Source of the DNA: Candidatus Bipolaricaulota bacterium
GTDB taxonomy: Bacteria; Bipolaricaulota; Bipolaricaulia; RBG-16-55-9; DRXL01
Reading direction: 5' to 3'
Assembly (NCBI GenBank): GCA_025060395.1
Contig: JANXCC010000004.1
Location: 37,454 to 101,453, forward strand
DNA: 64,000 nucleotides
Shown here: piece by piece, positions 7,154 to 61,832 of the stretch
Numbering within the stretch: the first letter of the stretch is position 1
Layout: each line of letters starts with the position of its first letter
The notes under the pieces: model-generated
The model's database searches: none
The model's input: only the letters and a program-made list of their open reading frames with translations
Told to the model about the DNA's origin: nothing
Program-made: the position numbers and the translations under genes

Positions 7154-8308
7154 ATGAAACTGACGGCGCAGATCAGCCGCACCGTCTTTTTGTTAGGGAT
7201 TGTCAGTCTATTGAACGATCTTGCAGGCGAGCTGATCATGGCTGTCTTGCCCATCTTTTTGATAGGGCTTGGCAGCGCCGGGTGGGTCGTGGGGCTGATC
7301 GGCGGTCTGGAAGACGCCACAAAAAGTCTTTTGAGTCTCGTCTTTGGGGGTCTTGCTGATAGACTAGGGCGCAAGAAGCCCTTGGTCTTCTTGGGCTATC
7401 TCATCCCGTCGGTCTTTCGCATCGCGTTGCCGTTCTCGACCCATTGGGCGATGGCGCTGGCCTTCCGGGTGCTCGATAGGATGGGCAAAGGGATGCGAAC
7501 CGCGCCACGCGATGCACTCATCGCCGACTCGGTCACGGAAGCAACACGCGGGGCGAACTTCGGCTTCCACCGCGCGATGGATACAGGGGGAGCGCTGCTC
7601 GGCTCAGCGCTCGCGTTTGTCTTCTTCTGGTGGCTCAATCTCCCCGTGCCAGGGATCATTCTCGTAGGCGGGCTGATCTCGGTAGCGTCGCTCATCCCCT
7701 TAGGTTTCGTCTCAGAATCTGTAAGCGCAGCTCAGCGTAGCAAGCTCTTCGAGGGCCTGCGCGAGCTGCCAAAGGCGTTCTATCTGAATCTGCTGGGGAT
7801 GAGCATCTTCGCCTTGGCCAATTTTAGCTATATGTTCTTCTTGCTCAAGGTAAACGCAGCGTATACAGACAAGCTCGCGGTCGGTCTGCCTATAGGAATG
7901 TACGTGCTCTATAACTTCACGTACACGCTCTGTGCGCTCCCCGCGGGGGTGCTCTCAGACAAGATCGGGCGGCGCGCCGTCTTGCTCATGGGGTATCTGA
8001 TATTCGGCATGACGTCCTTGGGGTTTGCGTTTGCGCGGAGTTTAGTGCTCTTTGTGCCGCTTTTTGCGTTCTACGGGATCGCGTATGCGTTCATAGAGTC
8101 CAACCAACGAGCGTTTGCAGCAGATTTGGCGCCGCTGGAGCGCCGTGGCACGGCGCTGGGACTCTTTCATATGTGCATCGGCTTTGGCTCGCTGTTGGGC
8201 AGCTGTATCGCTGGAGTGCTCTGGGAGATCTCACACGCGCTGACGTTCTTCTACGGCGCGGCGCTTGCAGCAGTGAGCCTCGCGTTCTTAGCGGCGCGAT
8301 GGGAATGA
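7154..8308 (+). CDS. MFS transporter
   Basis: 384 aa, about 12 TM. Loop motif GGLADRLGRKKP. TATAAT 7140..7145 lies 8 nt before the ATG and there is no SD. Confidence 0.8.
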   Translation: MKLTAQISRTVFLLGIVSLLNDLAGELIMAVLPIFLIGLGSAGWVVGLIGGLEDATKSLLSLVFGGLADRLGRKKPLVFLGYLIPSVFRIALPFSTHWAMALAFRVLDRMGKGMRTAPRDALIADSVTEATRGANFGFHRAMDTGGALLGSALAFVFFWWLNLPVPGIILVGGLISVASLIPLGFVSESVSAAQRSKLFEGLRELPKAFYLNLLGMSIFALANFSYMFFLLKVNAAYTDKLAVGLPIGMYVLYNFTYTLCALPAGVLSDKIGRRAVLLMGYLIFGMTSLGFAFARSLVLFVPLFAFYGIAYAFIESNQRAFAADLAPLERRGTALGLFHMCIGFGSLLGSCIAGVLWEISHALTFFYGAALAAVSLAFLAARWE

Positions 8309-8331
8309 ATCTGGCTCGGTGCAAAATTTTC

Positions 8332-8340
8332 TGTTACAAT
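8332..8340 (+). promoter_or_regulatory. extended -10 promoter element (TGtTACAAT)
   Basis: TG at 8332..8333 and TACAAT at 8335..8340, 23 nt upstream of the small-ORF ATG. Confidence 0.45.
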
Positions 8341-8362
8341 ACGAGGATGTGAGGAGGCTCCT

Positions 8363-8467
8363 ATGGCCAAGATGAACCCACGATATCGGCCCAAATGGTT
8401 GCGAAAGTTCAAGCGCAAGATGGCTGCGAAGCGTCGTCAGGCCCGTCGTGCCAAGCTCTATCCGTAG
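8363..8467 (+). CDS. 34-aa hyper-basic small protein (possible ribosome/nucleic-acid-associated)
   Basis: Hand translation gives MAKMNPRYRPKWLRKFKRKMAAKRRQARRAKLYP-stop. GAGGAGG lies 5 nt upstream. It is the first cistron after the promoter and is below the track cutoff. Confidence 0.5.
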   Translation: MAKMNPRYRPKWLRKFKRKMAAKRRQARRAKLYP

Positions 8468-8478
8468 GAGGTATCGCC

Positions 8479-8898
8479 ATGCCCAGCGCTACGGTGCGAT
8501 TAGTCGAGGGAATGCAATTTGTAGCGACAAGCGAGAGCGGTCACGCCGTCGTCATGGACACTACGGAAGATATTGGGGGACACGACACCGGCCCGCGCCC
8601 TATGGAGCTGGTGCTCATGGCGCTTGGGGGCTGTACGGGGATGGATGTCGTCTCGATCCTGCGCAAGATGCAGGTCCAGTTTACGCGCTTCGAGATGAAG
8701 GTTGAGGGGGAGCGCGCTGCCGAGCACCCCAAATACTTCACGAAAATCAGAGTGCTCTATAGAATCTGGGGCGATGTCCCTGAAGAGAAGCTCAAGAGAG
8801 CGATTGATCTCTCGTTGGAAAAGTACTGTTCAGTCTCTCACTCGCTCAAGCCTAAAGCCGAGATCTCGTATGCCTATCAGATCAATCCGCCTAGCTAG
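8479..8898 (+). CDS. OsmC-family peroxiredoxin-like protein
   Basis: ATG 8479 with TAGGAGGT. 139 aa with paired Cys motifs LGGCTGMD and KYCSVSHSL. Confidence 0.85.
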   Translation: MPSATVRLVEGMQFVATSESGHAVVMDTTEDIGGHDTGPRPMELVLMALGGCTGMDVVSILRKMQVQFTRFEMKVEGERAAEHPKYFTKIRVLYRIWGDVPEEKLKRAIDLSLEKYCSVSHSLKPKAEISYAYQINPPS

Positions 8899-8910
8899 AA
8901 AGGAGCTTCT

Positions 8911-10077
8911 ATGGCTGACGTGGTGATTGTCGACGCGGTGCGCACACCAATGGGTCGGTTCCAAGGGCGGCTTGCTCAATTTAGTTCGACGGAGCTTGGA
9001 GCTGCCGTGATCCGTGCTCTCAAAGAGCGCATGCATCTTAAGGGCGACGAAGTTGATGAAGTCATCATGGGGCAAGTAGTGCAAGCGGGTTCGGGCCAAG
9101 CCCCAGCACGTCAGGCCGCTATTCGGGGAGGCATCTCCCCAAGTGTGCCTGCCGTCACGATCAACAAGGTCTGTGGGTCAGGGCTGAAGGCCGTCATTAT
9201 GGCCGCCCAAGCGATTAAAGCCGGTGATGCTAAGATCGTCATCGCCGGCGGGATGGAGTCGATGAGCAACACGCCCTACTTGCTGAAGGGCGCTCGCGCG
9301 GGCTTTAAGTTTGGCGATCAGAAGCTTGTCGATGCCATGATATATGACGGGCTGTGGTGTGCGTTTGAGAACCAGCATATGGGGATGGCCGCTGAGTACA
9401 CGGCCGCCAAGTCGAGAATTACTCGTGAGGAGCAGGATCGCTTCGCATACGAGAGCCATATGAAGGCCGTGGCGGCGATAAAGGCTGGGAAATTCGCTCA
9501 GGAGCTGATTCCCCTCGAAGGCAAGGACGGTCCGATCACCGAAGACGAGACCCCGCGTCCCGACACGTCGCTCGAGAAATTAGCCAAGCTCAAGCCCGCC
9601 TTTAAAGAAGGGGGCACGGTAACGGCGGGGAACGCTCCGGGGCTGAATGACGGAGCTTCGGCGCTCCTGATTATGTCCAGCGATGAAGCCAAGAAGCGCG
9701 GCTACAAGCCATTAGCAAAGATTGTAGATTACGCCATAGCCGCCACCGAGCCTATTGATCTCTTCTACGCCCCCGTCGAGTCGACCAAGAAGCTCTTAGC
9801 CAAGATGAAGCTCTCTGTGAACGACTTCGATCTTATCGAGGTGAACGAAGCGTTCGCCGCTCAGACGCTTGCCGACGGTAAGGAGTTAGGGTGGGACTGG
9901 GCGCGGGTCAACGTGCATGGTGGAGCCATAGCGCTGGGGCACCCCATCGGGGCCAGCGGCGCTCGGATTCTGACGACGCTCGTGTGGGCCATGCGTGATC
10001 GCCAGGCTCAGTTGGGCCTCGCGACGATCTGCATGGGTGGCGGCATGGGGATCTCCTTGGCGGTGGAGCAGCTATGA
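8911..10077 (+). CDS. acetyl-CoA C-acetyltransferase (thiolase II)
   Basis: VCGSGLKA active Cys, NEAFAAQ, GHPIGASGARIL, CMGGGMG. Confidence 0.92.
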   Translation: MADVVIVDAVRTPMGRFQGRLAQFSSTELGAAVIRALKERMHLKGDEVDEVIMGQVVQAGSGQAPARQAAIRGGISPSVPAVTINKVCGSGLKAVIMAAQAIKAGDAKIVIAGGMESMSNTPYLLKGARAGFKFGDQKLVDAMIYDGLWCAFENQHMGMAAEYTAAKSRITREEQDRFAYESHMKAVAAIKAGKFAQELIPLEGKDGPITEDETPRPDTSLEKLAKLKPAFKEGGTVTAGNAPGLNDGASALLIMSSDEAKKRGYKPLAKIVDYAIAATEPIDLFYAPVESTKKLLAKMKLSVNDFDLIEVNEAFAAQTLADGKELGWDWARVNVHGGAIALGHPIGASGARILTTLVWAMRDRQAQLGLATICMGGGMGISLAVEQL

Positions 10078-18053: not shown

Positions 18054-18481
18054 GGTCTCCTCCTTGGTAGTTTAGGGTACCGTGTATTATATCCCAAAGA
18101 GTGGTGCTCAGGACAGATGACGGATATTCAGTTCTGTAGGGTCTTTGATCGAAGTAAAGAATAGATTTGTTCGATGCCATCAAAATAAAGATCGAGCAAG
18201 TGCGATTTATGCTCAACAGAAGAGGGGTTGCATCTCTTCCTCCTTGTGCCCGTGTCAGAAGTCGGGACCCTTGGGGTATCATAAGGGCGATTAAGGGTGC
18301 ACTCATCACCTCCTTGAGCAGAGGGCTTGGCCCGCGCATGGTGCATCCGAGAGCGAGCTCTCATGAGCTCGCCGGCGGTCCAGGGTTTTGCCCGTACCCC
18401 CAGCGGGATTTTTCCCCAGACCGCTAAGGAGGCGGTTCGAGTCCGTATGGGTCAAGCCCTCCCTCCTTCCTCCATTCCTCG

Positions 18482-18510
18482 TTGACACGATCGCTAGGGA
18501 ATGCTACAAT
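18482..18510 (+). promoter_or_regulatory. consensus-like sigma70 promoter of the hydrolase gene
   Basis: TTGACA 18482..18487, 17-nt spacer, TACAAT 18505..18510. Confidence 0.6.
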
Positions 18511-18552
18511 CCTTGCACAGCCCGGAGAGGCCGTAGAATCCAAGGAGGCTTC

Positions 18553-19299
18553 ATGCACGAAGCATTTGAGTATCTTGAGGCAGGTCAAGGGCCGGCCGTT
18601 CTGTTGCTTCATGGGCTCTTTGGAGGGCCAGAGAACTGGGCACCCTGCATCCCACTCCTTGCCTCAGACTTCCACGTCTTAGCTCTTAAATTCCCTCTCG
18701 ACGGTTCCATGGCTCTCACCTCGCTGCAGACGCTGACAGAATTTGTCAAGGCATTTTTAGATGCCAAGGGGATCGAACAAGTAGCCCTCTGCGGCAACTC
18801 CTTGGGAGGTCATGTAGCGCTCGACTTCTGCTTGAAATATCCCCACCGAGTGACTAAGCTCATCTTAGCAGGCAGTGCTGGGCTCTACGAACGCCATCTC
18901 TCTGATGGCTCCTTGCCCAAACCCAATAAAGACTTTATTCGCGAGCAGGCCCAAAAGATCTTCTTCGACAAGCGCCATATCAATGAAGACCTCATCGATC
19001 GAGTCTATCATCAGCTTCAGGACCGTCAGTACGTGCGTTTTCTCATCCGCGTTGCCAAACTCACAAGAGACTACAGAATGGATAATGAGCTTGCGAAGGT
19101 CCAGGTGCCTACTTTGCTCATCTGGGGTGCTCAAGACGAGGTTACTCCACCCAGCGTAGCTTATCAATTTCAGAAGCATCTCCCCAAGGCAACCCTGATC
19201 TTCTTGGACCGATGCGGCCACGCCCCTCCCATCGAACATCCAGAGCGATTCAGTCAGGCGGTGCGCGAGTTTCTGCTGTCCACGCCTGCTGCTGTCTAG
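18553..19299 (+). CDS. alpha/beta-fold hydrolase
   Basis: ATG 18553 with AAGGAGG. HGLFGG oxyanion region, GNSLGG nucleophile elbow, C-terminal CGH. Confidence 0.8.
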   Translation: MHEAFEYLEAGQGPAVLLLHGLFGGPENWAPCIPLLASDFHVLALKFPLDGSMALTSLQTLTEFVKAFLDAKGIEQVALCGNSLGGHVALDFCLKYPHRVTKLILAGSAGLYERHLSDGSLPKPNKDFIREQAQKIFFDKRHINEDLIDRVYHQLQDRQYVRFLIRVAKLTRDYRMDNELAKVQVPTLLIWGAQDEVTPPSVAYQFQKHLPKATLIFLDRCGHAPPIEHPERFSQAVREFLLSTPAAV

Positions 19300-19343
19300 G
19301 GAGCCCCTGTGGCGTTGGGAGGAAGGATCAGCTAGCATAAGCT

Positions 19344-19913
19344 ATGCGTATCGTTGGCGGGCGCTTGAGCGGCCGTCCCTTGCTCGAGCCTACACCCAGA
19401 ATGAAGAAGTTCTTGCGTCCTATGCGCGAGGCCGTGCGCGCTGCGCTCTTTGATATCCTCGGGGACTCGGTGATCGAGGCGCGCTTTCTCGATCTCTTTG
19501 CGGGGACTGGGAGCATCGGGCTTGAAGCCCTCAGCCGCGGTGCGCGCTCGTGTGTCTTCGTCGAGATCTCCGAGGAAGCCTGCCAGATCATCCGAAAAAA
19601 CATAGAGAATCTTGGGCTCTCCGCACAGACGAGACTCTATCAGCTCGATGTGCTCAAAGCGATCGAGTACTTCCATCGTCAGGGAGAGCAATTCGATCTT
19701 GTCTTCCTCGGGCCGCCTTATGGGAAAGAGCTCGCCCATAAGACCTTGAGCCATCTTGCCGCTCATCCTATCACGACTCCAGGAGCGCTTGTCGTCACCG
19801 AGGTCTTCAAGAAAGAGTCAGTTCAACCTGAGTACGGTCTTTTAAGGTCCTTTGACGTGCGCACCTATGGGGACAATCGCCTTTGGTTTTACCGATGGGG
19901 TGATTTCCAGTAA
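19344..19913 (+). CDS. rsmD: 16S rRNA (guanine966-N2)-methyltransferase
   Basis: RPMREAVRAALFDIL, LDLFAGTGSIGLEALSRGA, FLGPPY. Confidence 0.85.
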   Translation: MRIVGGRLSGRPLLEPTPRMKKFLRPMREAVRAALFDILGDSVIEARFLDLFAGTGSIGLEALSRGARSCVFVEISEEACQIIRKNIENLGLSAQTRLYQLDVLKAIEYFHRQGEQFDLVFLGPPYGKELAHKTLSHLAAHPITTPGALVVTEVFKKESVQPEYGLLRSFDVRTYGDNRLWFYRWGDFQ

Positions 19914-19939
19914 AATACGAGGGGAAAGGGGGAGATTTG

Positions 19940-20278
19940 ATGAAGCGAGAGTTAACGTTCGTCTTGGGGTCGGTGGCGTTCTTGGTGGCGTTAGTGATCG
20001 GGGTGCAGGTCCTGTGGCAGACGGCGCAGAGCCAACCGCAAATCCCCAATGAGCTGGTTGTGCGCCCGTTTGTGGAGATCAAATTCGAGTCTCCTTCAGA
20101 TTGGAAGAGCGAGATGCGCGGGAGCTGCGTCGCTTACATCCCCAAGGGAGGGCGTGTCGCGAAAGTGACGGTCACGCGCTCCGATGGCACTCGTATAGAT
20201 CATCAAGTCGCTTCGACAGGCTCTGTCGTGGTCTGCGAGAACATCGTCCATGTCGATACAGTAGGGCGAGGGTTCTAA
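19940..20278 (+). CDS. hypothetical small exported protein
   Basis: MKRELTFVLGSVAFLVALVIGVQVLWQTAQS/QPQ... looks like a signal peptide. GGGGGAG precedes ATG 19940. Confidence 0.55.
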   Translation: MKRELTFVLGSVAFLVALVIGVQVLWQTAQSQPQIPNELVVRPFVEIKFESPSDWKSEMRGSCVAYIPKGGRVAKVTVTRSDGTRIDHQVASTGSVVVCENIVHVDTVGRGF

Positions 20279-20292
20279 GAATCTATTAAGGG

Positions 20293-21129
20293 ATGATGCG
20301 CATGAATCGGATCTTCGTCATTGTGGGCATTGCCTTGCTCGCGATGGCCGGCTTGGTGCTCTTCTACACAACTCGTGGGCCTCAACCACGCGAGGGCGCG
20401 GTCAGCGTCGTACAGATCTCGGACGATATTCACGTCTATAGCTATAAAGTGCTGAAAGCTTTTCCTCATGATCCCCAAGCGTTTACCCAGGGCTTGGTCT
20501 ACTACAAAGACGATATTCTCTATGAAGGAACGGGAATGTGGGGGGAGTCATCGCTGCGAAAAGTAGATCTTCTGACGGGCAATGTCTTACAGATTCATCG
20601 GCTCCCCAATGAGATCTTCGGCGAGGGGATCACTCTCTGGAACGATACAATCATTCAGTTGACCTGGCAGCACCGCAAGGGCTTCGTCTACGACCGCGAG
20701 ACGTTCACGCTGCTGAGAGAGTTTTATTATCCGACGGAGGGCTGGGGGATCACCCACGATGGCCGGCGCTTGATCATGAGCGATGGCTCGGCGACGCTCT
20801 TTGTCTGGGATCCGGAGACATTTCAAGAAATCGGGCGCATCGAGGTCCGAGACGACAATGGCCCAGTCGTACGCCTGAATGAGCTTGAGTACATTAACGG
20901 GCTGATCTATGCTAACGTCTGGCTGACGGATCGCATCGCGATCATTCAGCCGGAGACGGGGCGGGTCGTGGGCTGGATTGATCTCACAGGGTTGCTTAAG
21001 CCCGAAGATCGTCATGCCCGCGTCGACGTGCTCAACGGCATCGCGTACGATGCCCAGGGCGACCGGCTCTTTGTGACCGGCAAATATTGGCCCAAGCTCT
21101 TTCAGATTCAGATAACAAGGGGGAAGTAA
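20293..21129 (+). CDS. glutaminyl-peptide cyclotransferase (beta-propeller type)
   Basis: FTQGLVYYKDDILYEGTGMWGESSLRKVD, GEGITLWND, EGWGITHDG, NELEYINGLIYANVW. N-terminal TM anchor. Confidence 0.8.
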   Translation: MMRMNRIFVIVGIALLAMAGLVLFYTTRGPQPREGAVSVVQISDDIHVYSYKVLKAFPHDPQAFTQGLVYYKDDILYEGTGMWGESSLRKVDLLTGNVLQIHRLPNEIFGEGITLWNDTIIQLTWQHRKGFVYDRETFTLLREFYYPTEGWGITHDGRRLIMSDGSATLFVWDPETFQEIGRIEVRDDNGPVVRLNELEYINGLIYANVWLTDRIAIIQPETGRVVGWIDLTGLLKPEDRHARVDVLNGIAYDAQGDRLFVTGKYWPKLFQIQITRGK

Positions 21130-21290: not shown

Positions 21291-22706
21291 TCATCCACCA
21301 CCGCCCACGCCAGCGACAAAGCCCCCTTGCGTCATCTTGCGCACGTCTAAGATCTCGTCGAGCTTCTTTGGAGGCAAGAGCTTCATCTCCAGGACGACTT
21401 CGCGGATCGTCTTCCCTTCGGCCATCGCTCGCTTCACGACTTCGGCAGCCTTGTCGTAGCCGATATACGGGTTGAGCGCCGTCGCTAAGATCGCATTTTG
21501 ATGAGCGAGACGCTCCATCTGCTCGCGATTGGCAATAATGCCCGCAATGCATTTATCAGCGAAGACACGACACGCATTGCTCAAGATCGTGACAGCCTGC
21601 AAGAGATTGTGCGCGATCACGGGTAGAGCGACGTTCAGCTCAAAGTTCCCCGATGCCGCGGCTTGAGTGACGACGACGTCATTGCCCATCACTTGCATCG
21701 CGACCATCATGACGGCTTCGGGGATGACGGGATTGACCTTCCCCGGCATGATCGACGAACCAGGCTGGAGCGCGGGAAGCCGAATTTCTGCGAGGCCTGC
21801 TTGTGGGCCGGAGTTCATCCATCTCAAATCGTTGGCGATCTTGTAGAGCGCCACGGCTAAAGCTTTGAGCGCGCCGCTCAGCTCGACGGCGGTCTCCATC
21901 GTCGCTTGCGCCGCGAAGTGATTGCGCGTCTCTCTGAAAGTGATCTTTGTCTCCTGGGCGAGCGCTTGAGCAATTCTCTGACCAAATTCCGGATGGGTGT
22001 TGATTCCCGTGCCCACGGCCGTGCCCCCAAGCGCAAGTTCATAGAGTCTGGGTAAGACAGCTTCGATGCGCTCGCGTGCGAGCGCAATCTGTGTAGCGTA
22101 CCCGGAAAATTCCTGCCCCAGCGTGATGGGCATGGCGTCCATCAAATGGGTGCGCCCCGTCTTGACGATATCTGAGAATTCTCGTGCTTTCGCTTCGAGA
22201 GCTTTTTGAAGGTGCTCTAACGCCGGGAGAAGCTGCTCGTGCACGGCTAACGCTGCCGAGATGTGCACGCAGGCGGGGATGACGTCATTGGAAGACTGCC
22301 CCAAATTGACGTGATCGTTCGGATGCACGGCTGTTTTATCGCCGCGCTTGACGCCTAAAATCTCGCACGCGCGGTTGGCGATCACTTCGTTGGCGTTCAT
22401 ATTCGTCGAGGTGCCTGAACCCGTTTGGAAGATATCTATGGGGAAGTGTTCATCGAGCTTGCCATCGACGACCTCACGAGCGGCTTGCTCAATGGCTTTG
22501 GCATGGATCTCGTCGAGCAGCTTGAGCTGATAGTTGACTCTCGCCGCGCAGAGCTTGACTAACCCTAACGCCCGGATGAACGTACGAGGGAAGCGTATTC
22601 CGCTGATGGGAAAATTCTCGACAGCGCGCTGAGTCTGCGCGCCCCAGTAGGCGTCCTGTGGGACTTTCACTTCGCCGAGGGAGTCCTTCTCGATGCGATA
22701 GTTCAT
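21291..22706 (-). CDS. fumC: class II fumarate hydratase
   Basis: ATG 22706 with [24 protein letters not shown]... and the [11 protein letters not shown] signature. 471 aa. Confidence 0.95.
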
Positions 22707-22838
22707 AATAAATCTCCTCTCTTGTCTTTGAGCTACATAAAGAAGTATAAGTGAAATGCGGTCTGTCAGCAATGACACCAGGCAGACTTCAACTCTTGCT
22801 CGTGGTTTCGAGTATAATTGTTTTGGGAGGCAGCAAGC

Positions 22839-24389
22839 ATGGCAGTCCAGGCAGCTGCTACGGCGGAGAAGCCCTGGCTTACAGGGACTGTCACGATTCT
22901 CTTTAGCGATATCGAGGGCTTTACTGACTACACGGGGCGTGCGGGAGATGCGGCTGCTTACCAACTCTTGCAAGACCATAATGCTATCATTCGGGAAGAA
23001 CTCCAGCGTTATGGCGGGATAGAGGTCAAGACTCTTGGGGATGGATTTATGGCGGTCTTCTCCAGCGCACGCGCCGCAGTCCTCTGCGCTGTGCAAATAC
23101 AGAAGCGCCTCACTGAGTATGCCCAGCGCTATCCCGAAACGCCCCTGCGGGTGCGCATCGGGCTCCATGCGGGAGAGCCCATTGCTCGTGAGCAAGACTT
23201 TATCGGACAAGCCGTCAATATTGCCGCGCGCATCACTGCCTGTGCTCAAGGGAGCCAGATCTGGGTCTCCGATGTAGTGCGCCAATTGGTCGGCCATATA
23301 GAAGGGATTCGCTTTGAGGAGCGAGGCTGGAAGGATCTCAAAGGGGTGGCAGAGCGCCAGCATCTTTATGAAGTCATCTGGGAGGAGAGCTCATCAGCTC
23401 AGCCTCCTGAGCTCTCGTACTGGCTTAGGGAAGAAGAAGTCACGATTCGACAGCGCTGGCGTGGCCAAGCCCAGATCTTCATCCATCTGAAAGGCTGGCG
23501 CTTGTTATGGGCTAGCTTGCGATTGCTCTTCCGGCGCCGTCATCTTGCCATATTGGCTCCTTTTCTGACTACTATGATCATCTACTTCACGTTCAGCTAC
23601 TTTGCTTATGGCCCCCCTGTTCTGATAAAAGAACCTGCTACCCCTGCTCAAGAAGGCTCACAGCCACGTATCAGAGCGACGGTCAAGTTTGAACCACAAT
23701 TCCTTGAGAGCGTCCTTGAGATCCTCATCCTAGCTCTCATTAGCCCTCTGATCGCAGGCATTACGATCCGGATGGTGATGAATGCTGTAGAGCGACAGAA
23801 GCTCCTTCCTGTTCCCGAATTGCGCCAACTTATCCTAAAAAGATATGGAGGGCTGCTCAAGGCAAGCTTGGCTTACGTGGGGCTGAGCACTTTGGGAATC
23901 ATAGGGCCACCTTCTCTCGCGTATTATCTCGTTTTTCAGCCATTGGGGGTTCCCAACGATTGGCGGATGGTTCTGGGGCTTCTGCCTTTGGGTATACCAG
24001 GAGGGATAGCCTTTTTACGATGGGCTCTCTACCTGCACGCGACGCTTATAGAAGGGCGAGGGCCATGGGAGAGCCTCCGCTGGAGTTGGCACGCCACCCG
24101 AGGGAATGCGGGCGCAATCGCGGCTATAGCGTTCATCCCCTCCCTCGTAACTTTGCTTGTCTTCTCACCGTTGTATAATTTCATTACACTTGTCGTTCAA
24201 TTTACAAAAGATCAGCCGCTTCCTATAGCTGTGAAGGCTGCTTGGCAGTCGGGAGCAAATTTCGCATTTCACTATGAACCGCTGGTGATGCTGATCAACC
24301 CTTGGACGTGGGCGGCATTAACGCTGGCTTACTTGCAACTGCGTGAGGGGATGACGCGCTGGATTGCTCAACAATCGAGGAGGACGTGA
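22839..24389 (+). CDS. class III adenylate/guanylate cyclase domain fused to a C-terminal ~6-TM domain
   Basis: ATG 22839 with [28 protein letters not shown] and AVNIAARI in the first ~190 aa. About 6 hydrophobic spans after residue ~220. Confidence 0.8.
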
Positions 24390-25207
24390 TGGAACGCATT
24401 CGGACTGCAGCCGTTGCCGGAAGTTTTTATCCCGCAAGCTCAGAGCGCCTGCGCAAGACTGTTGAGACGTTGCTCGCTCAAGCACAGCCTAAGACGCTCG
24501 AGGGCAAACTGCGAGGCCTGATCGTGCCCCATGCAGGGTATATCTACTCGGGGCCAATAGCCGCGACAGGGTATAAGCTCCTTCAGGACCTCTCCTCTAG
24601 CCCCTTGAAGGAAGGGGGCCAGGAGATGAGGTCTCTTTTGCTCGGTCCAGCGCATTATGTTTACTTCGTCGGCGCGGCCACTCTAGACTGCGACGCGTGG
24701 CAGACCCCGCTCGGTTTAATACAATCTGCAAGAGACTTGATCGCCCGTGCTCTAGAGTGTGGCGATCTTCAGAATAATCCCGCTGCCCACGTCCCAGAGC
24801 ATTCTCTAGAAGTACAGCTCCCCTTTGTGCAGACGGTGCTTCCCAACTGCGAGATCTTTCCGATCTTGACCGGCGAATGTGACTATCGCGAGCTGGCGCG
24901 CACCCTAAGCCCATATATTGATGACATAGATCTCGTCATCGTCAGCTCAGATCTGAGTCACTATTATCCCTATGAAGAAGCTCTTAAGCGCGACGCGCTC
25001 GCGCATCGAGCGATTGAACACTTCGATTTCGATCTGATGGAGGATCGCGTTGAAGCTTGCGGTAAGACAGCTATTTTGACGCTCATGCGGATCGCTAAAG
25101 AGCGGGGCTGGAAGGCCAAGCTCTTGAACTATCGTAACTCCGGAGACACAGCAGGGGATAAATTCCGTGTCGTGGGCTACGGGTGCTATGCGTTCTATGA
25201 GGAGTGA
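24389..25207 (+). CDS. AmmeMemoRadiSam system protein B (MEMO1-like)
   Basis: AAVAGSFYPAS...GLIVPHAGYIYSGPIAA. The ATG shares one base with the cyclase TGA. GAGGAGGA lies upstream. Confidence 0.85.
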   Translation: MERIRTAAVAGSFYPASSERLRKTVETLLAQAQPKTLEGKLRGLIVPHAGYIYSGPIAATGYKLLQDLSSSPLKEGGQEMRSLLLGPAHYVYFVGAATLDCDAWQTPLGLIQSARDLIARALECGDLQNNPAAHVPEHSLEVQLPFVQTVLPNCEIFPILTGECDYRELARTLSPYIDDIDLVIVSSDLSHYYPYEEALKRDALAHRAIEHFDFDLMEDRVEACGKTAILTLMRIAKERGWKAKLLNYRNSGDTAGDKFRVVGYGCYAFYEE

Positions 25208-25211
25208 AAAG

Positions 25212-26261
25212 ATGATCGTCACCCTAGCAGAGCTACTCGATGCGCGCACACGCCCAGGCGAACTCTACGAGAAGCTCGAAGAGAATAGAGTACGCTGCTA
25301 CGCGTGCGCCCATCGCTGCGTGATCTTTGATGGAAAACGGGGCATCTGCCAGGTGCGCTTTAATAGAGACGGAAAGCTCTACGTGCCCTGGGGCTATGTC
25401 AGCTCGCTAGGGCTCGACCCAATAGAGAAGAAGCCGTTCTATCACGTCTTGCCTGGCGCACGCACGCTCACCTTCGGGATGCTCGGATGCGATTTGCACT
25501 GTCCATACTGCCAGAACTGGGAGATCTCACAGACACTGCGAGACAGAAACGCTGGTGCCCTCCCGCATGACGTCACCCCAGAAAAGTTAGTCAGCCTCGC
25601 TCGGCGCTCCGGCGCGCGCGCTGTCATCAGCTCCTACAATGAGCCATTGATCACTTCAGAATGGGCCATCTCGGTCTTTCAAGAAGCCAAGAGATTTGGT
25701 CTGCTGACAGGCTACGTCTCCAACGGCAACGCGACGCGCGAGGTCTTGCAGTATCTGCGCCCATATCTCGACTGCTACAAGATAGACTTAAAGACCTTTC
25801 AAGACAAGAACTACCGTGTGCTTGGAGCAGTCTTGTCTAGAATCTTAGATGGCATCGGAATGGTGCACGACCTGGGCTTTTGGCTGGAGATTGTGACGCT
25901 AGTTGTCCCAGGGTTTAACGACTCCGACGATGAGCTGAGACAGATCGCGAAATTTTTAGTTTCAATATCGCCGGATATCCCTTGGCATGTGACGGCTTTT
26001 CACAAGGACTACAAGATGACTGACCCAGAGAATACCCCCGCGGGGACGCTCATTCGAGCAGCCCAGATCGGCTACGACGCAGGACTGCACTTCGTCTACA
26101 CGGGAAATCTCCCCGGCATGACCGGACGATTCGAGAACACCTACTGTCCAGGCTGTGGGGCGCTGCTCATCGAACGCTATGGCTTTGCCATCTTACAAAA
26201 CAGACTTCGCGATGGGCATTGCCCCGACTGCGGGCAGGCAATCCCGGGAGTATGGGCTTAA
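25212..26261 (+). CDS. AmmeMemoRadiSam system radical SAM enzyme
   Basis: CDLHCPYCQNW (CxxxCxxC), an N-terminal Cys cluster CYACAHRC and a C-terminal CPGCG...CPDCG. Confidence 0.85.
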   Translation: MIVTLAELLDARTRPGELYEKLEENRVRCYACAHRCVIFDGKRGICQVRFNRDGKLYVPWGYVSSLGLDPIEKKPFYHVLPGARTLTFGMLGCDLHCPYCQNWEISQTLRDRNAGALPHDVTPEKLVSLARRSGARAVISSYNEPLITSEWAISVFQEAKRFGLLTGYVSNGNATREVLQYLRPYLDCYKIDLKTFQDKNYRVLGAVLSRILDGIGMVHDLGFWLEIVTLVVPGFNDSDDELRQIAKFLVSISPDIPWHVTAFHKDYKMTDPENTPAGTLIRAAQIGYDAGLHFVYTGNLPGMTGRFENTYCPGCGALLIERYGFAILQNRLRDGHCPDCGQAIPGVWA

Positions 26262-28321
26262 GCGAGTGCTTCTGCGACGAGCTCAGCTATATCTTTGTTC
26301 TCGAACTCGGCATTCTTTGATTTAATGCCGTCTTCGAGCATGATCATGCAGAACGGACATGCACTAGCTACGAACTTTGCGCGACCGTTGGTCTGAGCTT
26401 GCGCGAACGCCTCCTGAGCTTGCTTGACTCGGAGTTCGTTGACGCGCTTGCCGGGCTCCTCTTCGAGCCACATCAGCCCGCCCCCTGCGCCGCAGCACAT
26501 GCCCCGTTCGCGATGGCGCTCCATCTCAATGAGCTTCACGCCCGAAATCTTTTTCAGAATATCTCTCGGCGCGTCAAAGATTCTGTTATAGCGCCCAAGA
26601 TAACACGAGTCGTGATACACAATCGTCGCGGGGATCTCTTTCATGAGCTTGAGCCGTCCATCTCTCAGCAATTGCGCGATCAGCTCCGTGTGATGGATGA
26701 CTTCGTACTGCCCACCAAGCGCAGGATACTCGTTCTTGAGCGTGTTGAAGCAGTGCGGGCAGATCGTGAGAATCTTCTTGACGTTATAGTTATTCAACGT
26801 CTCAATGTTCTGCTGGGCTAAGATCTGGAAGATATACTCATGGCCGATGCGGCGGGCGGGATCACCGGTGCAGCCCTCTTCTTCGCTGAGCACAGCGAAC
26901 TTTATTCCAGCGTGTTGCAAGATCTTGACGACGCTGCGAGCGATCTTTTGTGTTCGGGGATCAAACGACGCCGCGCACCCGACAAAGAAGAGATACTCAA
27001 AGTCTGGTCTGGGGTTGGACGCAGCTATCGTTGCAGCAACTGGCACATCGAGGCCCTTCATCCAGGCTAAACGTTCTGATGCGGGCATGTCCCAGGGGTT
27101 GCCACGCCCGTCCATCCCCTTGAAGACGTCAGTGAAGCCCGCAGGATATTTGTCTTGGATCATCACTTCGTTGCGGCGCAGCTCTAAAATCTTATTCAGG
27201 GGATCAATGAAGACTGGGCAGACCTCGACACACGCCATGCACGTTGTGCACGCCCAGATCTCTTCAGGCTTTATAGAGTACCCGATAATCTGTTTGTGCT
27301 CTTTAGGCTTGCCAAAAGCAGGAAACTCTTCATTAGCATGAGCGCGCAGTTCTAAAATGATCTCGCGCGGCGAGAGAATCTTCCCCGACAGATGTGCAGG
27401 GCAGTTCGCCTCGCAGCGCCCGCACTCGGTGCAACTTGCTAAATCCAAAAAGTCTTTGCGAGTTAAGTCTTTTAAAGTTTGAAAGCCCAAGACTTCGTTG
27501 CGCTCGAATGCGCCCTCAACGTCGAGGACTTCTAAGCGTCCGCGCGGACGCATCTCTTGAAAGAAAAGATTGACTCCTGCCGAGAGAATGTGCATCACCT
27601 TTGGAGCATAGGGCAAGTAGGCAATCCAGCCCAGTGCCAAAATCCCATGCGCCCACCAGAGAGCTAGATGCCAACTGCGCAGCGTCTCCACGGACGCCCC
27701 CTGCACCCATTGAGAGACAAAAAACCCCGCCCACGACCAGCGCGGATCGTAAGTCAGCTCCGACGCTGTCGCTGCCAAGCGCAAACCTTCGACGAGAAAG
27801 CCCGTCACCCCAATGAGCAAGAGCCATACGGGCAGCACTAGATCTAACGGCTTCCAGGTGAGCTGCGGCGGCTTGAGCCCATAGCGCCGGACCAGCGCCC
27901 AGATCAGTCCAGCAAGAAAGAGCACGCCCAACGTGTCCAAGATCAGCTCATACCCCAAGAAGAACGAGCCGACCCAAAAGCCATGTTTCATCCCTAAAAT
28001 CTTCTGAAAGAGATCGTACTCAATCGTGACGATCACCGTGCCGATGAAAAGCACGACGAAGCCCCACATGATGAGAAAGTGCATCACGCCAGCGGAGGCG
28101 TCATGACGCAGGATCGTTCTGTTGGCTGCGATGCTCACTAGGGCCGCGCCGAGCTTAGCCCAGAAGGGGCGCACGGTGAACGCTACTTTCTTGCCTTGAA
28201 GGATTCTGCGCACATGGGCATAGATACCATAGGCGAAGATCACAATAGCGATCAGGGCGATCAGATAGAAGATCAATTCGCCGAAGGACGAGATGTTCCA
28301 GAAGACTTTGCGTGTCGCCAC
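26258..28321 (-). CDS. membrane-bound Fe-S oxidoreductase (cytochrome-b-like TM domain + 2x[4Fe-4S] + two CCG domains; HdrD/GlpC/DsrMK-like)
   Basis: Five to six N-terminal TMs, CTECGRCEANCP, CTTCMACVEVCP, FFVGCAASF, MCCGAGGG. Confidence 0.8.
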   Translation of the reverse strand: MATRKVFWNISSFGELIFYLIALIAIVIFAYGIYAHVRRILQGKKVAFTVRPFWAKLGAALVSIAANRTILRHDASAGVMHFLIMWGFVVLFIGTVIVTIEYDLFQKILGMKHGFWVGSFFLGYELILDTLGVLFLAGLIWALVRRYGLKPPQLTWKPLDLVLPVWLLLIGVTGFLVEGLRLAATASELTYDPRWSWAGFFVSQWVQGASVETLRSWHLALWWAHGILALGWIAYLPYAPKVMHILSAGVNLFFQEMRPRGRLEVLDVEGAFERNEVLGFQTLKDLTRKDFLDLASCTECGRCEANCPAHLSGKILSPREIILELRAHANEEFPAFGKPKEHKQIIGYSIKPEEIWACTTCMACVEVCPVFIDPLNKILELRRNEVMIQDKYPAGFTDVFKGMDGRGNPWDMPASERLAWMKGLDVPVAATIAASNPRPDFEYLFFVGCAASFDPRTQKIARSVVKILQHAGIKFAVLSEEEGCTGDPARRIGHEYIFQILAQQNIETLNNYNVKKILTICPHCFNTLKNEYPALGGQYEVIHHTELIAQLLRDGRLKLMKEIPATIVYHDSCYLGRYNRIFDAPRDILKKISGVKLIEMERHRERGMCCGAGGGLMWLEEEPGKRVNELRVKQAQEAFAQAQTNGRAKFVASACPFCMIMLEDGIKSKNAEFENKDIAELVAEALA

Positions 28322-47668: not shown

Positions 47669-49063
47669 TTATAAGATATATCGGCTAAGGTCTAAGTCTT
47701 CGACAATGCCCTTGAGCTTGGCGTGCACATACGCAGCGTCGATGGTAAAAGTCTTCGGCTCAGGCAGATCGCACGTCTCAAAGGCAATATCTTCCATAAG
47801 TTTCTCCATCACGGTGTGCAAGCGCCGCGCCCCGATATTTTCTAAGCGCTCATTGAGGCGGAACGCGATCTCAGCAATCGCGTCGAGCGCATCATCCGTA
47901 AATTCTAGGCATAGCCCCTCCGTAGCCATCAACGCTTGGTACTGTTTTGTCAGGGCATCTTCAGGCTCCTTGAGGATCCGGCGAAAGTCTTCTTTGCTGA
48001 GGGGTTTAAGCTCAACGCGGATGGGGAGCCGCCCTTGGAGCTCCGGGATGAGATCCGACGGCTTAGACATAGTAAACGCTCCTGCTGCGATAAAGAGAAT
48101 ATTATCGGTGCGCACGTTGCCATAGCGGGTGCGTACCGTTGAGCCCTCCAAGATGGGCAAGAGATCGCGTTGCACCCCCTGCCGCGATACCCCAGGACCG
48201 AAGCGTTCCTCCCGCCCCCCTGCGGCGATCTTGTCAATCTCATCGATAAAAATAATCCCCATCTCTTCAGCACGTTGCACTGCCTGGCGCTTGATCTCAT
48301 CGAGATTGATGAGCTTATCAGCTTCTTCGTTGAAGAGCAGTTCGCGCGCCTCCTTGATCTTCATGCGCTTGACCGTGTAGCCGAAGCCCAAGGGATTGAG
48401 CTTCTCCAACAGCTCGCTCAGATCTACACCCAGCTGCTCCACCCCTTCAGCTGTGAAGAACCCGACTTGTGAGAAGGGGGACTCGCGCTTCACTCGGATC
48501 TCAACGTAGTGCTCTTCAAGGGCTCCGGCTCGCAACTTCTCTCGCAGCTTTTCGCGGGTCTGGCGCCAGGAGTCGCGACGTTCCTCATCCGCACTGCTGG
48601 GCGGCGTTGCCCCTATCAGGGCATCTAAGAGCCGCTCCTCTACGGCGCGCTCTGCTTCGTGCTTCACCTTCTCGATGGCCTCCTGGCGTACCATCTGGAA
48701 GCTTACTTCGACGAGATCCCGAACCATCGACTCGACATCGCGCCCGACATAGCCCACTTCAGTGTACTTTGTCGCTTCTACCTTTAAAAACGGTGCCTTG
48801 ATCAAGCTCGCAAGCCTGCGGGAGATCTCAGTCTTTCCCACCCCCGTAGGGCCGATCATCAAGATGTTCTTGGGAAGGATCTCTTTGCGGATGGGATCAG
48901 TCACGCGCATGCGTCGGATGCGATTTCTGAGAGCAATGGCCACCGCGCGCTTCGCCTCATACTGCCCAATAATATACTTATCGAGCTCGGCCACGATCTC
49001 CCTCGGGGAGAGCGCGCGTTTACTCGTGCGTTCGAACGCGTTGATCTCGACGATGTCAGCCAT
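47669..49063 (-). CDS. hslU: ATP-dependent protease ATPase subunit HslU
   Basis: [26 protein letters not shown], and C-terminal ...DLSRYIL. Confidence 0.95.
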
Positions 49064-49066
49064 CAG

Positions 49067-49615
49067 TCACCACTCAAGGGTTTCGATCGATATATGTTGA
49101 TTAGTATAGATATCCAACGCTCCTGCGATCTCCAGGGCTTTCCGCGCGATCTCCACGATGGGCAGTTGGGTGTTCTGGCGCAGGGCCTTGGCAGCCGCAA
49201 GCGCATAGGTTCCTCCAGACCCCAGCCCGATCATCTCGTCATCGGGCTCGAGAACATCCCCAGCCCCAGAGATCAGCAACAATCCTTCGGCGTTGACGAC
49301 AACCATCATGGCCTCTAAGCGCCGCAGGACTCTGTCGGTGCGCCAGTCTTTAGTGAGCTCGACCGCTGCACGCTTTAGGTTCCCGCCAAATTCTTTTAAT
49401 TTGCTCTCGAAACGCTCAAAGAGCGTGATGGCGTCGGCGGTCGCTCCGGCAAACCCCACCAAGACCTGATCGTTATAGATCTTGCGGATCTTTTTCGCCG
49501 TACTCTTTAGCACGACATTGTTGAGCGTCGCCTGCCCATCAGAAGCGATGACCGCGCGACGCTCCCGCGCTGAGCGAATCGCTAGAATAGTCGTGCCGTG
49601 GATACGCGCTTTCAT
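49067..49615 (-). CDS. hslV: ATP-dependent protease subunit HslV
   Basis: MKARIHG/TTILAIRS...GDGQATL and GSGGTYALAAA. Confidence 0.93.
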   Translation of the reverse strand: MKARIHGTTILAIRSARERRAVIASDGQATLNNVVLKSTAKKIRKIYNDQVLVGFAGATADAITLFERFESKLKEFGGNLKRAAVELTKDWRTDRVLRRLEAMMVVVNAEGLLLISGAGDVLEPDDEMIGLGSGGTYALAAAKALRQNTQLPIVEIARKALEIAGALDIYTNQHISIETLEW

Positions 49616-51781: not shown

Positions 51782-52345
51782 TCACCTCTCTTCCTCTGCC
51801 TGAGGAGGGGGAGGAGCTGGAGGTGAGGGTGACTTCCCACAAATCGGACAGAAATTCTCTTCGCTCAGGAAGCCGCACTGGGGACAGGGCTTCCAGCCTA
51901 GCTTCCAACGGGCCTTCTCCATTATCTTGGCTTTCCGCATAAGTTGCTTCACTGTGGCGCGCAGGGTCGGGTCGGCAAGCTCTACAACAAGCTGCTCGAT
52001 CTCGTGCTCTTCTTCAGGGCTCAGCTCAACAGCCTCGAGCGAGAGCACTGGGCGTGGCTTAGGGAAGCTCTCGACGCGAAAGCGAATCTCCTTGACGCGC
52101 TCGGCCCCCAAAGCGCTGTTGAGCTTTCTTCTGAATTCTTCTCGCATTAGGCTGAACTCGTGCTGGACGATGTGATTGGGCACCGCGACGAAGAGCACGC
52201 CCTCATGGACCCAGATCGGTCGCGCTAACCGTGAGATCCTCTGTCCAACAACGCGATCCCACATAAGCGCTGGCTCCTGCTCGCGATATCCTTCGAGCAG
52301 GCCGTACTTGCGTAACACCCTCTCGATCAGTGTTGCTTCGATCAT
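51782..52345 (-). CDS. DUF721 (DciA-like) protein with a C-terminal zinc ribbon
   Basis: The N-terminal ~95 aa fit DUF721 (W..VVG..I...A.P......VLFV.V......E). C-terminal CPQCG...CPICG and a Pro-rich tail. Confidence 0.7.
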   Translation of the reverse strand: MIEATLIERVLRKYGLLEGYREQEPALMWDRVVGQRISRLARPIWVHEGVLFVAVPNHIVQHEFSLMREEFRRKLNSALGAERVKEIRFRVESFPKPRPVLSLEAVELSPEEEHEIEQLVVELADPTLRATVKQLMRKAKIMEKARWKLGWKPCPQCGFLSEENFCPICGKSPSPPAPPPPQAEEER

Positions 52346-52346
52346 C

Positions 52347-53447
52347 TCATCCCTGCTTGAGCTTCCCTTCTCCTTGAGAGGGGAGAGGGATCACTCTTCC
52401 GTTCTCTATGGCGAAGATGCGCCGAGCTACCGCACGCACCTCCGGAAAGAGTTCTTCAGGGTCCATTGCTGTATGAGTGAGAAAGATCTGAATATCTTTA
52501 GGCAGAAGCTGCAAGAGCCGTTGGAGCCGAGGGCGATCCAGCTCCGTGAGCACGTCGTCCAAGATCAAGATAGGATAATCCCCGAAGCGCTGAAAGCCTA
52601 GATCAAGCTGGGCGAGCAAGACCGCGCAGAGCGCAGATTTCTGCTCCCCTTGTGAGCCAAAGCGCCTCAAGTCATGGCCATCGAGCATAAAGCGTAGATC
52701 GTCGCGATGAGGGCCGACTAAGATCATACGACGCCGGATCTCTTCTGGAGTGGCATCCCTGATGAGTTGAGCAAGGGGCACCGAAGGCCCCTCATAGCTG
52801 AGCACTAACTTGCTCTCGCGACCACAGATCGCTTGGTAGCGCTCGGGAAGCATCTTGTTGAGCTCCCGAATATATTCGCGTCGCTGAGCGATGAGCCAAC
52901 TCCCTCGCTCTACGAGCTCCTGGTTGAAGACCTCCAGGACTTCAGGATCAGGGGTCTCCTGATGCAATAGAGCGCTCTTGCGCTGGAGCACCTGCTCATA
53001 CTCGCGCAGCACATATCGATATTCACGCGAAATCTCGGAGATACTGCGGTCGAGAAAGCGCCGGCGCTGCTCAGGACGACCTTTGAGAATCTGTAATTCA
53101 TCTGGGGTAAAGAGCACGACGTGCAGCCGTGCGCTCAACTCGCTCTGGGTCTTCCTTTCGTGATTGAGCTCGATAGTCTTGGCACGCGCTCGTCCGTTGA
53201 GATGAACTCGGATCTCATCACCGTTGACAGAAAGCTCGATAGCGGCTTCTTGCTGCCCGAAGGCAATCACGTCACGCTGGCGCTCCCCCTTAAGCAACCA
53301 GCCTTTAGCAACGTAATAGATCGCTTCGCAGAGATTGCTCTTGCCTGCGGCATTGGGCCCAATGATGAGATTGAGCCCACCATCGGGCATCAGCTCTAGA
53401 GGCGCTAGATTGCGAAAGTTATAGAGCGCGAGACGCTCAACCTTCAT
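52347..53447 (-). CDS. recF: DNA replication/repair protein RecF
   Basis: NFRNL...GPNAAGKSNL Walker A, an SMC-like signature SQGEQK, and ILILDDV. Confidence 0.92.
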   Translation of the reverse strand: MKVERLALYNFRNLAPLELMPDGGLNLIIGPNAAGKSNLCEAIYYVAKGWLLKGERQRDVIAFGQQEAAIELSVNGDEIRVHLNGRARAKTIELNHERKTQSELSARLHVVLFTPDELQILKGRPEQRRRFLDRSISEISREYRYVLREYEQVLQRKSALLHQETPDPEVLEVFNQELVERGSWLIAQRREYIRELNKMLPERYQAICGRESKLVLSYEGPSVPLAQLIRDATPEEIRRRMILVGPHRDDLRFMLDGHDLRRFGSQGEQKSALCAVLLAQLDLGFQRFGDYPILILDDVLTELDRPRLQRLLQLLPKDIQIFLTHTAMDPEELFPEVRAVARRIFAIENGRVIPLPSQGEGKLKQG

Positions 53448-53459
53448 CTCGATGATATT

Positions 53460-54530: not shown

Positions 54531-54563
54531 CGTCGCTAACCCCTGGTGCTGGTAGGTACCCTC

Positions 54564-54593
54564 AGCATAGCAGAGATCCCAGGGCGTTGTCAA
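54564..54593 (-). promoter_or_regulatory. dnaA promoter
   Basis: On the minus strand: TTGACA (54593..54588), 18-nt spacer, TATGCT (54569..54564). The track's TTG start is part of the -35 hexamer. Confidence 0.5.
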
Positions 54594-56731: not shown

Positions 56732-57064
56732 ATGCGCAAGATCGACTTAGTCGCTCAAGTAGCGCAGCGGACAGGAATGCCTAAGGAGGCCATTTTGAAG
56801 TCATTAAACGCCGCGCTTGCTGTGATCTCGGAGACGATAGCCCAGGGGGAAGAGGTGCGGTTAAAGGGATTTGGGACCTTTGTGGTACGACCGCGTCGCC
56901 CTACGCGGCGCAGCAATCTGTGGACTCGTCAGGTCTTTGCTATCCCAAGCAAGCCGATACCGCGCTTTGTCCCAGGAAAGGCTCTCAAGCAGCGTGTGCT
57001 CAGCAATCTCACCGTAGTAGAACTGCCAAGTGGACGTCTAGCTATCCGTCCAAAGTCTGGCTAG
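56732..57064 (+). CDS. HU/IHF-family DNA-binding protein with a C-terminal extension
   Basis: MRKIDLVAQVAQRTGMPK...VRLKGFGTFVVR...FVPGKALKQRV. Confidence 0.85.
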   Translation: MRKIDLVAQVAQRTGMPKEAILKSLNAALAVISETIAQGEEVRLKGFGTFVVRPRRPTRRSNLWTRQVFAIPSKPIPRFVPGKALKQRVLSNLTVVELPSGRLAIRPKSG

Positions 57065-58509: not shown

Positions 58510-58546
58510 CGTTCACGCTCCTGTTCATAACATTAGCTGATTGGGA

Positions 58547-59281: not shown

Positions 59282-59283
59282 AG

Positions 59284-60078: not shown

Positions 60079-60082
60079 CGAC

Positions 60083-60253: not shown

Positions 60254-60256
60254 CGG

Positions 60257-61762: not shown

Positions 61763-61768
61763 ACAACT

Positions 61769-61777: not shown

Positions 61778-61832
61778 GAAAACCGTTCGAAGTTCGAGTC
61801 TTGCTCTCAGCTTCCGGTGCAGGCAGGAATGG

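Follow-up and report, generated by a model that had tools for sequence, protein, structure and literature searches.

A predicted adenylate cyclase gene ahead of a Memo–radical SAM gene pair in Bipolaricaulota looks like a lineage-specific insertion

Results

Organization of the cyclase–Memo–radical SAM locus

The window analysed here is a 64-kb stretch of a metagenome-assembled genome (MAG) of a Candidatus Bipolaricaulota bacterium, in which a gene for a predicted class III adenylate cyclase is followed on the same strand by a Memo-like gene and by a gene for a radical SAM enzyme (rSAM) of the AmmeMemoRadiSam type. Coordinates are positions in the window, and L-numbers denote loci of relatives, with L001 lying inside the window. 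The three genes, with product lengths in amino acids (aa), and their two junctions are as follows.

22839..24389, + strand: cyclase gene, predicted membrane-anchored class III adenylate cyclase of 516 aa (Pfam and structure-sequence alignment)
24389..25207, + strand: Memo-like gene (amrB type), 272 aa; Memo domain alone, with no AMMECR1 fused
25212..26261, + strand: radical SAM gene (amrS, AmmeMemoRadiSam type), 349 aa; TIGR04337
24377..24391, + strand: junction 1, with the ribosome-binding site GAGGAGGA; the cyclase TGA and the Memo ATG have one base in common (TGATG)
25199..25214, + strand: junction 2, with a GAGGAG ribosome-binding site within the Memo end, TGA, a 4-nt gap and the rSAM ATG

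Reading of the sequence places the cyclase start at the ATG at 22839, with GGGAGG (22825-22830) 8 nt upstream. The cyclase stops at TGA 24387-24389, and the A at 24389 doubles as the first base of the Memo ATG (24389-24391), ahead of which GAGGAGGA lies at 24377-24384. The Memo gene stops at TGA 25205-25207, preceded by GAGGAG at 25199-25204 and followed by AAAG (4 nt) and the rSAM ATG at 25212. The same three genes, of 516, 272 and 349 aa, are present in the public annotation (GCA_033581635.1, contig JAVQSW010000001.1, 489 kb). The sequence confirms the gene coordinates, the 1-nt overlap, the 4-nt gap and the GAGGAG element of the original prediction, which had been made from this DNA alone.

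Near-abutting genes on one strand, with ribosome-binding sites inside the upstream genes, have the form of a translationally coupled operon, and the operon-like three-gene unit proposed earlier is borne out by these junctions. A consensus scan, whose hits were no more numerous than in shuffled sequence, found no terminator-like site at either gene junction; its single hit in the three-gene stretch (25303-25322) lies inside the rSAM coding region, and such hits are at background level. The cyclase, Memo and rSAM genes probably share one transcript. The 21 kb of annotation around the locus hold 10 other same-strand neighbour pairs, of which 5 overlap or are separated by no more than 5 nt. Since tight junctions are the norm in this genome, the coupling geometry is not unusual by itself.

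Distribution of the cyclase linkage among relatives

Relatives were surveyed in a sample of 80 metagenome loci whose rSAM is 61–90% identical to that of the window. Neighbourhoods were read from six-frame stop-to-stop fragments with hidden Markov models (HMMs), and a locus was counted as informative if it had at least 1.5 kb on both sides. Further loci came from a search with the cyclase. The cyclase–Memo–rSAM triad was found only in the window and in the following loci from the cyclase search, all of one Bipolaricaulota subclade; cNMP denotes cyclic nucleoside monophosphate.

L088: fumC(-), cyclase, Memo, rSAM; cyclase 91% identical to that of the window
L092: fumC(-), cyclase, Memo, rSAM; cyclase 77% identical
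L089/L090/L091 (two NCBI MAGs): fumC(-), cNMP-binding(-), cyclase, Memo, rSAM; cyclase 73% identical

In all triads the 1-nt overlap is kept, the Memo start coinciding with the last cyclase base. The original prediction had been made to depend on at least one relative carrying the linkage, and it does occur in L088, L089/L090/L091 and L092. Seven loci carry the Memo–rSAM pair without a cyclase, namely L002, L003, L008, L032 and L039, which have the divergent fumC, and L005 and L009, which have another context. No cyclase was found at the rSAM-only loci (n = 75). Because the pair occurs without the cyclase at seven loci, Memo–rSAM is taken as the conserved unit.

A bootstrapped neighbour-joining (NJ) tree of Memo and rSAM gave the topology (((L032,L092),(window,L088)),L089), joined next by L008 and next by (L003,(L002,L039)), with L005 and L009 outside. 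Bootstrap support was 100% for {L032,L092}, 98% for {window,L088} and 74% for the whole cyclase-bearing clade. L032, which has no cyclase, is nested in this clade as the sister of L092, to which its Memo is 97% and its rSAM 99% identical; its junction is clean, the conserved leader running straight into the Memo ribosome-binding site.

The nearest relative of the window, L088, has a cyclase gene (7787-9308, aligned to window 22839-23140) with a 38-bp deletion, which takes out 13 residues including K64 and D68 (the KTLGDG segment) and shifts the frame; its ends fall at an imperfect direct repeat (shared TTATGGCGG). Three contigs carry the 435-aa product that results, and Memo and rSAM are intact there. 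The L088 cyclase looks like a fresh pseudogene heading an otherwise intact operon. The cyclase is dispensable, having been lost in L032 and broken in L088 with Memo–rSAM kept.

Cyclase relatives at 38–51% identity (L095/L096, L097 and L105) lie beside neither Memo nor rSAM. No cyclase/Memo–rSAM linkage across distant genomes or independent of synteny was found, and in the one subclade that has the linkage, the synteny with fumC is conserved as well.

Leader and junction sequences

Comparison of the upstream regions of cyclase-bearing and cyclase-less loci pointed to two promoter-like elements, both putative and recognized by their conservation.

22722..22751, + strand: promoter-like TTGTCT-N18-TATAAG and the start of the shared leader
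22813..22830, + strand: TATAAT (-10-like, 22813-22818) and GGGAGG (22825-22830), before the cyclase ATG

The TTGTCT...TATAAG element lies next to the fumC start, is followed by a leader of about 40 nt, and is common to cyclase-bearing and cyclase-less loci. The (G)TATAAT...GGGAG element occurs only in the cyclase-bearing loci (window, L088, L089 and L092), where it starts their extra block. Neither TTGTCT...TATAAG nor TATAAT was called by a promoter consensus scan, the hits of which were at background level, and inspection of the leader by eye found no convincing CRP-like palindrome.

At the other end of the extra block, a 15-nt block before and across the Memo start is identical in cyclase-less and cyclase-bearing loci: AGGAGGACGTGATGG precedes Memo in both the window and the cyclase-less L032, and AAGGAGGGCATGATGG precedes it in both the cyclase-less L008 and the cyclase-bearing L092. 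Because this block is common to both locus types, the last cyclase codons (RRT* or RRA*) are read as the Memo ribosome-binding site, and the cyclase stop as part of the Memo start context. The linked cyclase, ending in ..AQQSRRT*, falls about 10 aa short of the different end of its unlinked relatives (..AQHLRNLATPSALDWSR).

The cyclase protein

The cyclase product matches Pfam Guanylate_cyc (PF00211) with 81.6 bits over residues 16-173. Its two domains are as follows.

22884..23357, + strand: catalytic domain (aa 16-173); PF00211 and alignment to the Ma1120 and Rv1900c structures
23481..24386, + strand: C-terminal membrane domain with some 5-6 hydrophobic helices; DUF7847, with weak similarity to GPDPase_memb

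All six canonical residues are kept, comprising the metal-binding D24 and D68, the adenine-specifying K64 and D120, and the transition-state N127 and R131; they are conserved across the family members that keep the region, P0123 being without the N-terminal 86 aa. Since all six are present, the protein is predicted to be an adenylate cyclase, most likely an ordinary homodimer making cyclic AMP (cAMP). A homodimeric mechanism is expected for class III cyclases of this kind. The catalytic domain is closest to those of the mycobacterial class III cyclases Ma1120 and Rv1900c (LipJ), with 100–111 bits against the structures, and shares with them the full set of catalytic and specificity residues. 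The window cyclase differs from these enzymes in having its catalytic domain at the N-terminus, in carrying the rare DUF7847 multi-helix membrane domain instead of an alpha/beta-hydrolase or other soluble module, and in belonging to a family limited to a few Bipolaricaulota.

A search among 5.8 billion protein clusters returned only seven full-length relatives of the cyclase. For the C-terminal membrane half, 1.84 billion representative proteins yielded 8 relatives (E<=1e-3), and of 185,579 species-representative genomes only 3, each of them from Bipolaricaulota, have it. The family is very rare and appears confined to this phylum. An AlphaFold model built from an 8-sequence alignment (mean pLDDT 45.7, pTM 0.35) was too poor for a fold search.

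The ratio of nonsynonymous to synonymous divergence (dN/dS) of the intact cyclase is 0.12–0.13 against its L092 and L089 orthologues, at a synonymous divergence (dS) of about 1.0–1.5. These low ratios indicate that the intact copies are under purifying selection and that the cyclase is a working gene in its own right.

The Memo and radical SAM proteins and the AmmeMemoRadiSam system

The Memo-like protein scores 167 bits against PF01875 and 243.1 bits against TIGR04336 (cutoff 26), and in an alignment to human MEMO1 it keeps the PHAGY, GPxH, EHS and SSDxxH motifs. The rSAM scores 292.5 bits against TIGR04337, for which the curated cutoff is 220. Its CxxxCxxC motif is C93/C97/C100 (nt 25488-25511) within GCDLHCPYC, and it also has an N-terminal cysteine cluster and a zinc-ribbon-like CPGC...CPDC motif at the C-terminus; the window copy has no intein. 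A dN/dS of 0.08–0.15 indicates purifying selection on the pair.

In several relatives the rSAM CxxxCxxC is split by an intein of 446–453 aa with Intein_splicing / LAGLIDADG matches, located exactly before the third cysteine (GCDLHCPY / C...N / CQNW). The intein is absent from the window, L088, L002, L003 and L008, and varies between near-identical exteins: L039 has it, and the 99% identical L002 does not. The intein-bearing rSAM genes are as follows.

L032: 8246-10753
L039: 8351-10756
L089/L090: 10385-12793
L092: about 7408-9795

Within the AmmeMemoRadiSam system (TIGR04335 for the AMMECR1-like A, TIGR04336 for B, TIGR04337 for rSAM), the Memo and rSAM of the window are well above the family cutoffs, and their order, B then S, matches that in Ideonella and Segatella. 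The amrB and amrS gene symbols were seen in NCBI records; the symbol for A is amrA. The window departs from the system in three respects: it has no AMMECR1 gene or domain in its 64 kb, its Memo is unfused whereas Memo and AMMECR1 are fused in Ideonella, Segatella and L087, and a co-oriented adenylate cyclase gene lies upstream.

The AMMECR1 signature LRGCIG/RGChG (PMC2034487) is absent from all six frames of the window. An AMMECR1 HMM built from three archaeal PDB sequences and two bacterial domains (Ideonella and Segatella) had no match in the window at E<=10, against 1e-64 and 1e-68 for its two positive controls. Among the other window open reading frames (ORFs) of at least 100 aa, with three short ones left out (938-1282, 56732-57064 and 62098-62568), Pfam scans also gave no AMMECR1. 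No AMMECR1-like A adjoins or is fused to the B and rSAM genes in the window, and motif, HMM and Pfam scans thus agree with the earlier statement that the window has none.

That absence had also been taken as informative, a reading which the survey does not support. Of the 46 related rSAM loci that were informative, 43 have no Memo and no AMMECR1 nearby, and the rSAM of Thermoflexus hugenholtzii likewise stands alone. AMMECR1 was seen at only one of the 80 related loci, L087. The absence of AMMECR1 nearby is normal for this rSAM branch, and little should be read into its lack beside Memo and rSAM. In the linked cases read here, AMMECR1 forms the C-terminal part of a fusion with Memo (464 aa in Ideonella, 491 aa in Segatella, and also L087). 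Because linked AMMECR1 is a C-terminal fusion of Memo, the cyclase position upstream of Memo is not the AMMECR1 'slot' that it had been proposed to occupy.

At L087 (7049-8102), an rSAM gene (62% identical) is followed directly by a Memo–AMMECR1 fusion gene that runs off the contig end. Here the order is S then B-A, whereas Ideonella and Segatella have B-A then S.

Balaji and Aravind (2007) described a gene neighbourhood, persistent among prokaryotes, in which a radical SAM enzyme accompanies a ring-opening-dioxygenase-like (Memo) protein, and predicted RNA-base modification for Memo/AMMECR1/radical SAM, with AMMECR1 as a nucleotide- or nucleic-acid-binding enzyme (PMC2034487). The window too pairs a radical SAM gene with Memo; it differs in that AMMECR1 is the central linked or fused partner in those neighbourhoods. 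The literature searched contained no functional study of AmmeMemoRadiSam, of AMMECR1 with radical SAM, or of MEMO1 with AMMECR1. Burroughs et al., in 2019 (J Biol Chem 294:10211), are said to have centred the neighbourhoods on AMMECR1 and to have predicted nucleotide-base or isoprenoid modification.

cNMP-binding neighbours of the cyclase family

The recurring neighbour of the cyclase family is an orthologous stand-alone cNMP-binding protein of 141 aa, found in three lineages (L089–L091, L095/L096 and L105). Its gene is divergent from the cyclase in L089–L091, and convergent in L095/L096 and L105. P0124 and P0248 are probably a fourth case, both having a longest contig of 2188 bp. In L095/L096 the cyclase is also adjoined by a metallo-beta-lactamase-fold (MBL) protein with an Anti-Pycsar_Apyc1-like Pfam match, which may be a cyclic-nucleotide phosphodiesterase; at L100–L102 this MBL and cNMP-binding pair occurs as well, and no cyclase was called in the flanking sequence. 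These genes make up a small conserved cAMP module of Bipolaricaulota-like genomes. The window cyclase belongs to this family, and differs from the modules in that neither its locus nor the 64 kb around it has a cNMP-binding gene. The coordinates of the modules are as follows.

L089–L091: 7490-7915 (-)
L095/L096: 9526-9951 (-) and 10028-10762 (-)
L105: 3539-3997 (-)
L100: 5175-6426

Flanking genes and other features of the window

The three-gene unit is flanked by two genes on the opposite strand.

21291..22706, - strand: fumC (class II fumarase, 471 aa), divergent neighbour; Lyase_1 and FumaraseC_C
26258..28321, - strand: membrane Fe-S protein (CCG and 4Fe-4S dicluster domains, 687 aa), convergent neighbour

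A listed 690-aa fumC ORF (21291-23363, - strand) extends across the initial 525 bases of the cyclase, which is encoded on the other strand. This ORF was rejected as an artefact of upstream in-frame codons, the real fumC being 471 aa with its start at 22706. Divergent fumC is also present in L002, L003, L008, L032, L039, L088, L089 and L092. On the other side of fumC, a nosZ/nosD/nosL cluster (nitrous-oxide reductase) is found in L002, L003, L008, L032, L039 and L092, and the window (18388-21129), L088 and L089 have hydrolase, methyltransferase and either glutaminyl-cyclase or TauE genes there instead. Since L092 with a cyclase and L032 with none are both of the nos type, this rearrangement does not track the presence of the cyclase.

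The stop of the CCG/Fe-S gene overlaps that of rSAM by 4 nt. This gene is a syntenic neighbour outside the three-gene unit: it is absent in L005, and in L002, L003 and L039 it is set apart from rSAM by a HicA-containing pair. The pair encodes proteins of 93–95 aa and 83 aa, the latter a HicA_toxin, at L002 9082-9611, L003 8994-9529 and L039 10791-11320.

Elsewhere in the window (57061-61897 and 47669-49615, - strand), two genes for proteasome subunits lie between two of the Pup-ligase family (PafA/Dop-like), and an HslV/HslU-like pair is 8 kb from this cluster. The Pup-proteasome system is best known from Actinobacteria and Nitrospirae, and Bipolaricaulota lie outside these. Genes for DnaA (only 377 aa), a recF-like SMC_N protein and DciA lie in a row at 51782-54593 (- strand), and since they are consecutive, the window may be close to a replication origin.

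Discussion

The locus is a new arrangement of known parts, and we know of no described association of a cyclase with Memo–AMMECR1–radical SAM neighbourhoods. We consider it probable that a working cAMP-signalling gene, specific to a small set of Bipolaricaulota, came to lie at the head of a Memo–rSAM operon, where it is co-expressed with the pair and stands outside its chemistry. The two-gene amrB-amrS operon would have existed first. A lineage-specific membrane cyclase gene, with its own -10 element and ribosome-binding site, would then have been inserted between the leader and the Memo ribosome-binding site, so that its ORF ran into that old site and ended at the TGA overlapping the Memo ATG. 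The apparent translational coupling would be a geometric outcome of the insertion, and co-transcription of the cyclase with Memo–rSAM would follow from the landing site. On this reading the cyclase was gained once and is already lost or broken in the closest relatives, and it is neither a component of nor a substitute in AmmeMemoRadiSam chemistry; that the event was an insertion is what the junction sequences and the tree point to.

Several observations weigh against this interpretation. The triad and its 1-nt overlap have been kept through synonymous saturation (dS about 1–1.5) in three intact lineages, in which the cyclase is under purifying selection. Such persistence is also what a functional link predicts, yet the flanking synteny (fumC and others) persists over the same distance. 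The direction of the event is taken from an NJ tree of two proteins, in which the key clade has 74% support, and the leader of L032 resembles that of the window more than that of its sister L092, a sign of recombination. Both co-transcription and cyclase activity are predictions from sequence. No cNMP-binding protein was found in the 64-kb window, and of the cNMP-binding homologues looked up none was traced to the window genome, two candidates belonging to other assemblies.

The original prediction saw in the cyclase a signalling input or output of the system. In such a functional link the cyclase would sense a signal related to Memo–rSAM, such as redox or metal status, or a substrate or product that is a membrane lipid or isoprenoid; or else cAMP would be made in step with Memo–rSAM expression. 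In both versions the operon would act as a regulatory unit. The like gene order and 1-nt overlap in four lineages, the purifying selection on a cyclase at the operon head, and the cNMP-binding gene in the same intergenic region of L089–L091, which sets a complete cAMP module beside Memo–rSAM, all fit this idea. Set against them are the clean loss in L032 and the pseudogene in L088, with Memo–rSAM intact in both, and the lack of a cyclase at seven Memo–rSAM loci and at the 75 loci with rSAM only. Linkage is seen in a single subclade, the distant cyclase relatives sit elsewhere, and adjacency is little informative where gene order is generally conserved at this divergence. A signalling link of this kind thus seems unlikely. 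A narrower form, in which the rare membrane cyclase was recruited in one subclade as a genuine sensor or output of Memo–rSAM, for instance with DUF7847 sensing the lipid or isoprenoid that the pair modifies or with cAMP gating the pathway, is a long shot; if true, it would be the first physiological lead to what the AmmeMemoRadiSam/MEMO1 family does.

The triad could instead be ancestral to the fumC-linked Bipolaricaulota, with repeated loss in L032, L008 and the L002/L003/L039 clade, and the cyclase a decaying partner. Loss is indeed ongoing in L032 and L088, the tree backs a single gain only moderately (74%), and the leader and ribosome-binding-site junctions would fit precise deletions. This history calls for three or more independent clean deletions where the insertion takes one gain and one loss, the outgroups L005 and L009 have no cyclase, and the relatives at 49–51% identity have a different context and a longer native C-terminus; we regard it as quite unlikely. 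Least credible is a variant AmmeMemoRadiSam system in which the place of AMMECR1 as third component is taken by the cyclase, a nucleotide-binding domain. In its favour, AMMECR1 is missing from the window and is predicted to bind nucleotides or nucleic acids (PMC2034487), and the cyclase binds ATP. The local absence of AMMECR1 is however typical (43 of 46 related rSAM loci), linked AMMECR1 is a C-terminal fusion of Memo and never upstream in the examples read, and the cyclase still has its membrane anchor and every canonical catalytic residue; in close relatives the cyclase is absent or broken, and their Memo and rSAM are under purifying selection. On the relatives' losses, the fusion position and the typical absence of AMMECR1, the cyclase was rejected as an AMMECR1 analogue, and a replacement of this kind is highly improbable.

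Of the original prediction, the operon-like unit, its occurrence in relatives and the lack of AMMECR1 in the window therefore stand, and the signalling role, the AMMECR1 slot and the reading of the missing AMMECR1 as informative are not supported. Any conserved partner gene would be a useful clue to what the Memo/AMMECR1/radical SAM system does, and with it human MEMO1 and AMMECR1. Because close relatives have lost or broken it, the cyclase looks like a lineage-specific insertion and gives no such clue: it is a dispensable, lineage-specific passenger. Memo–rSAM behaves in this clade as a self-sufficient two-gene module, and in related lineages the rSAM often stands alone. The locus also brings to light a rare protein family that joins an adenylate cyclase domain to DUF7847, usually beside a 141-aa cNMP-binding protein.

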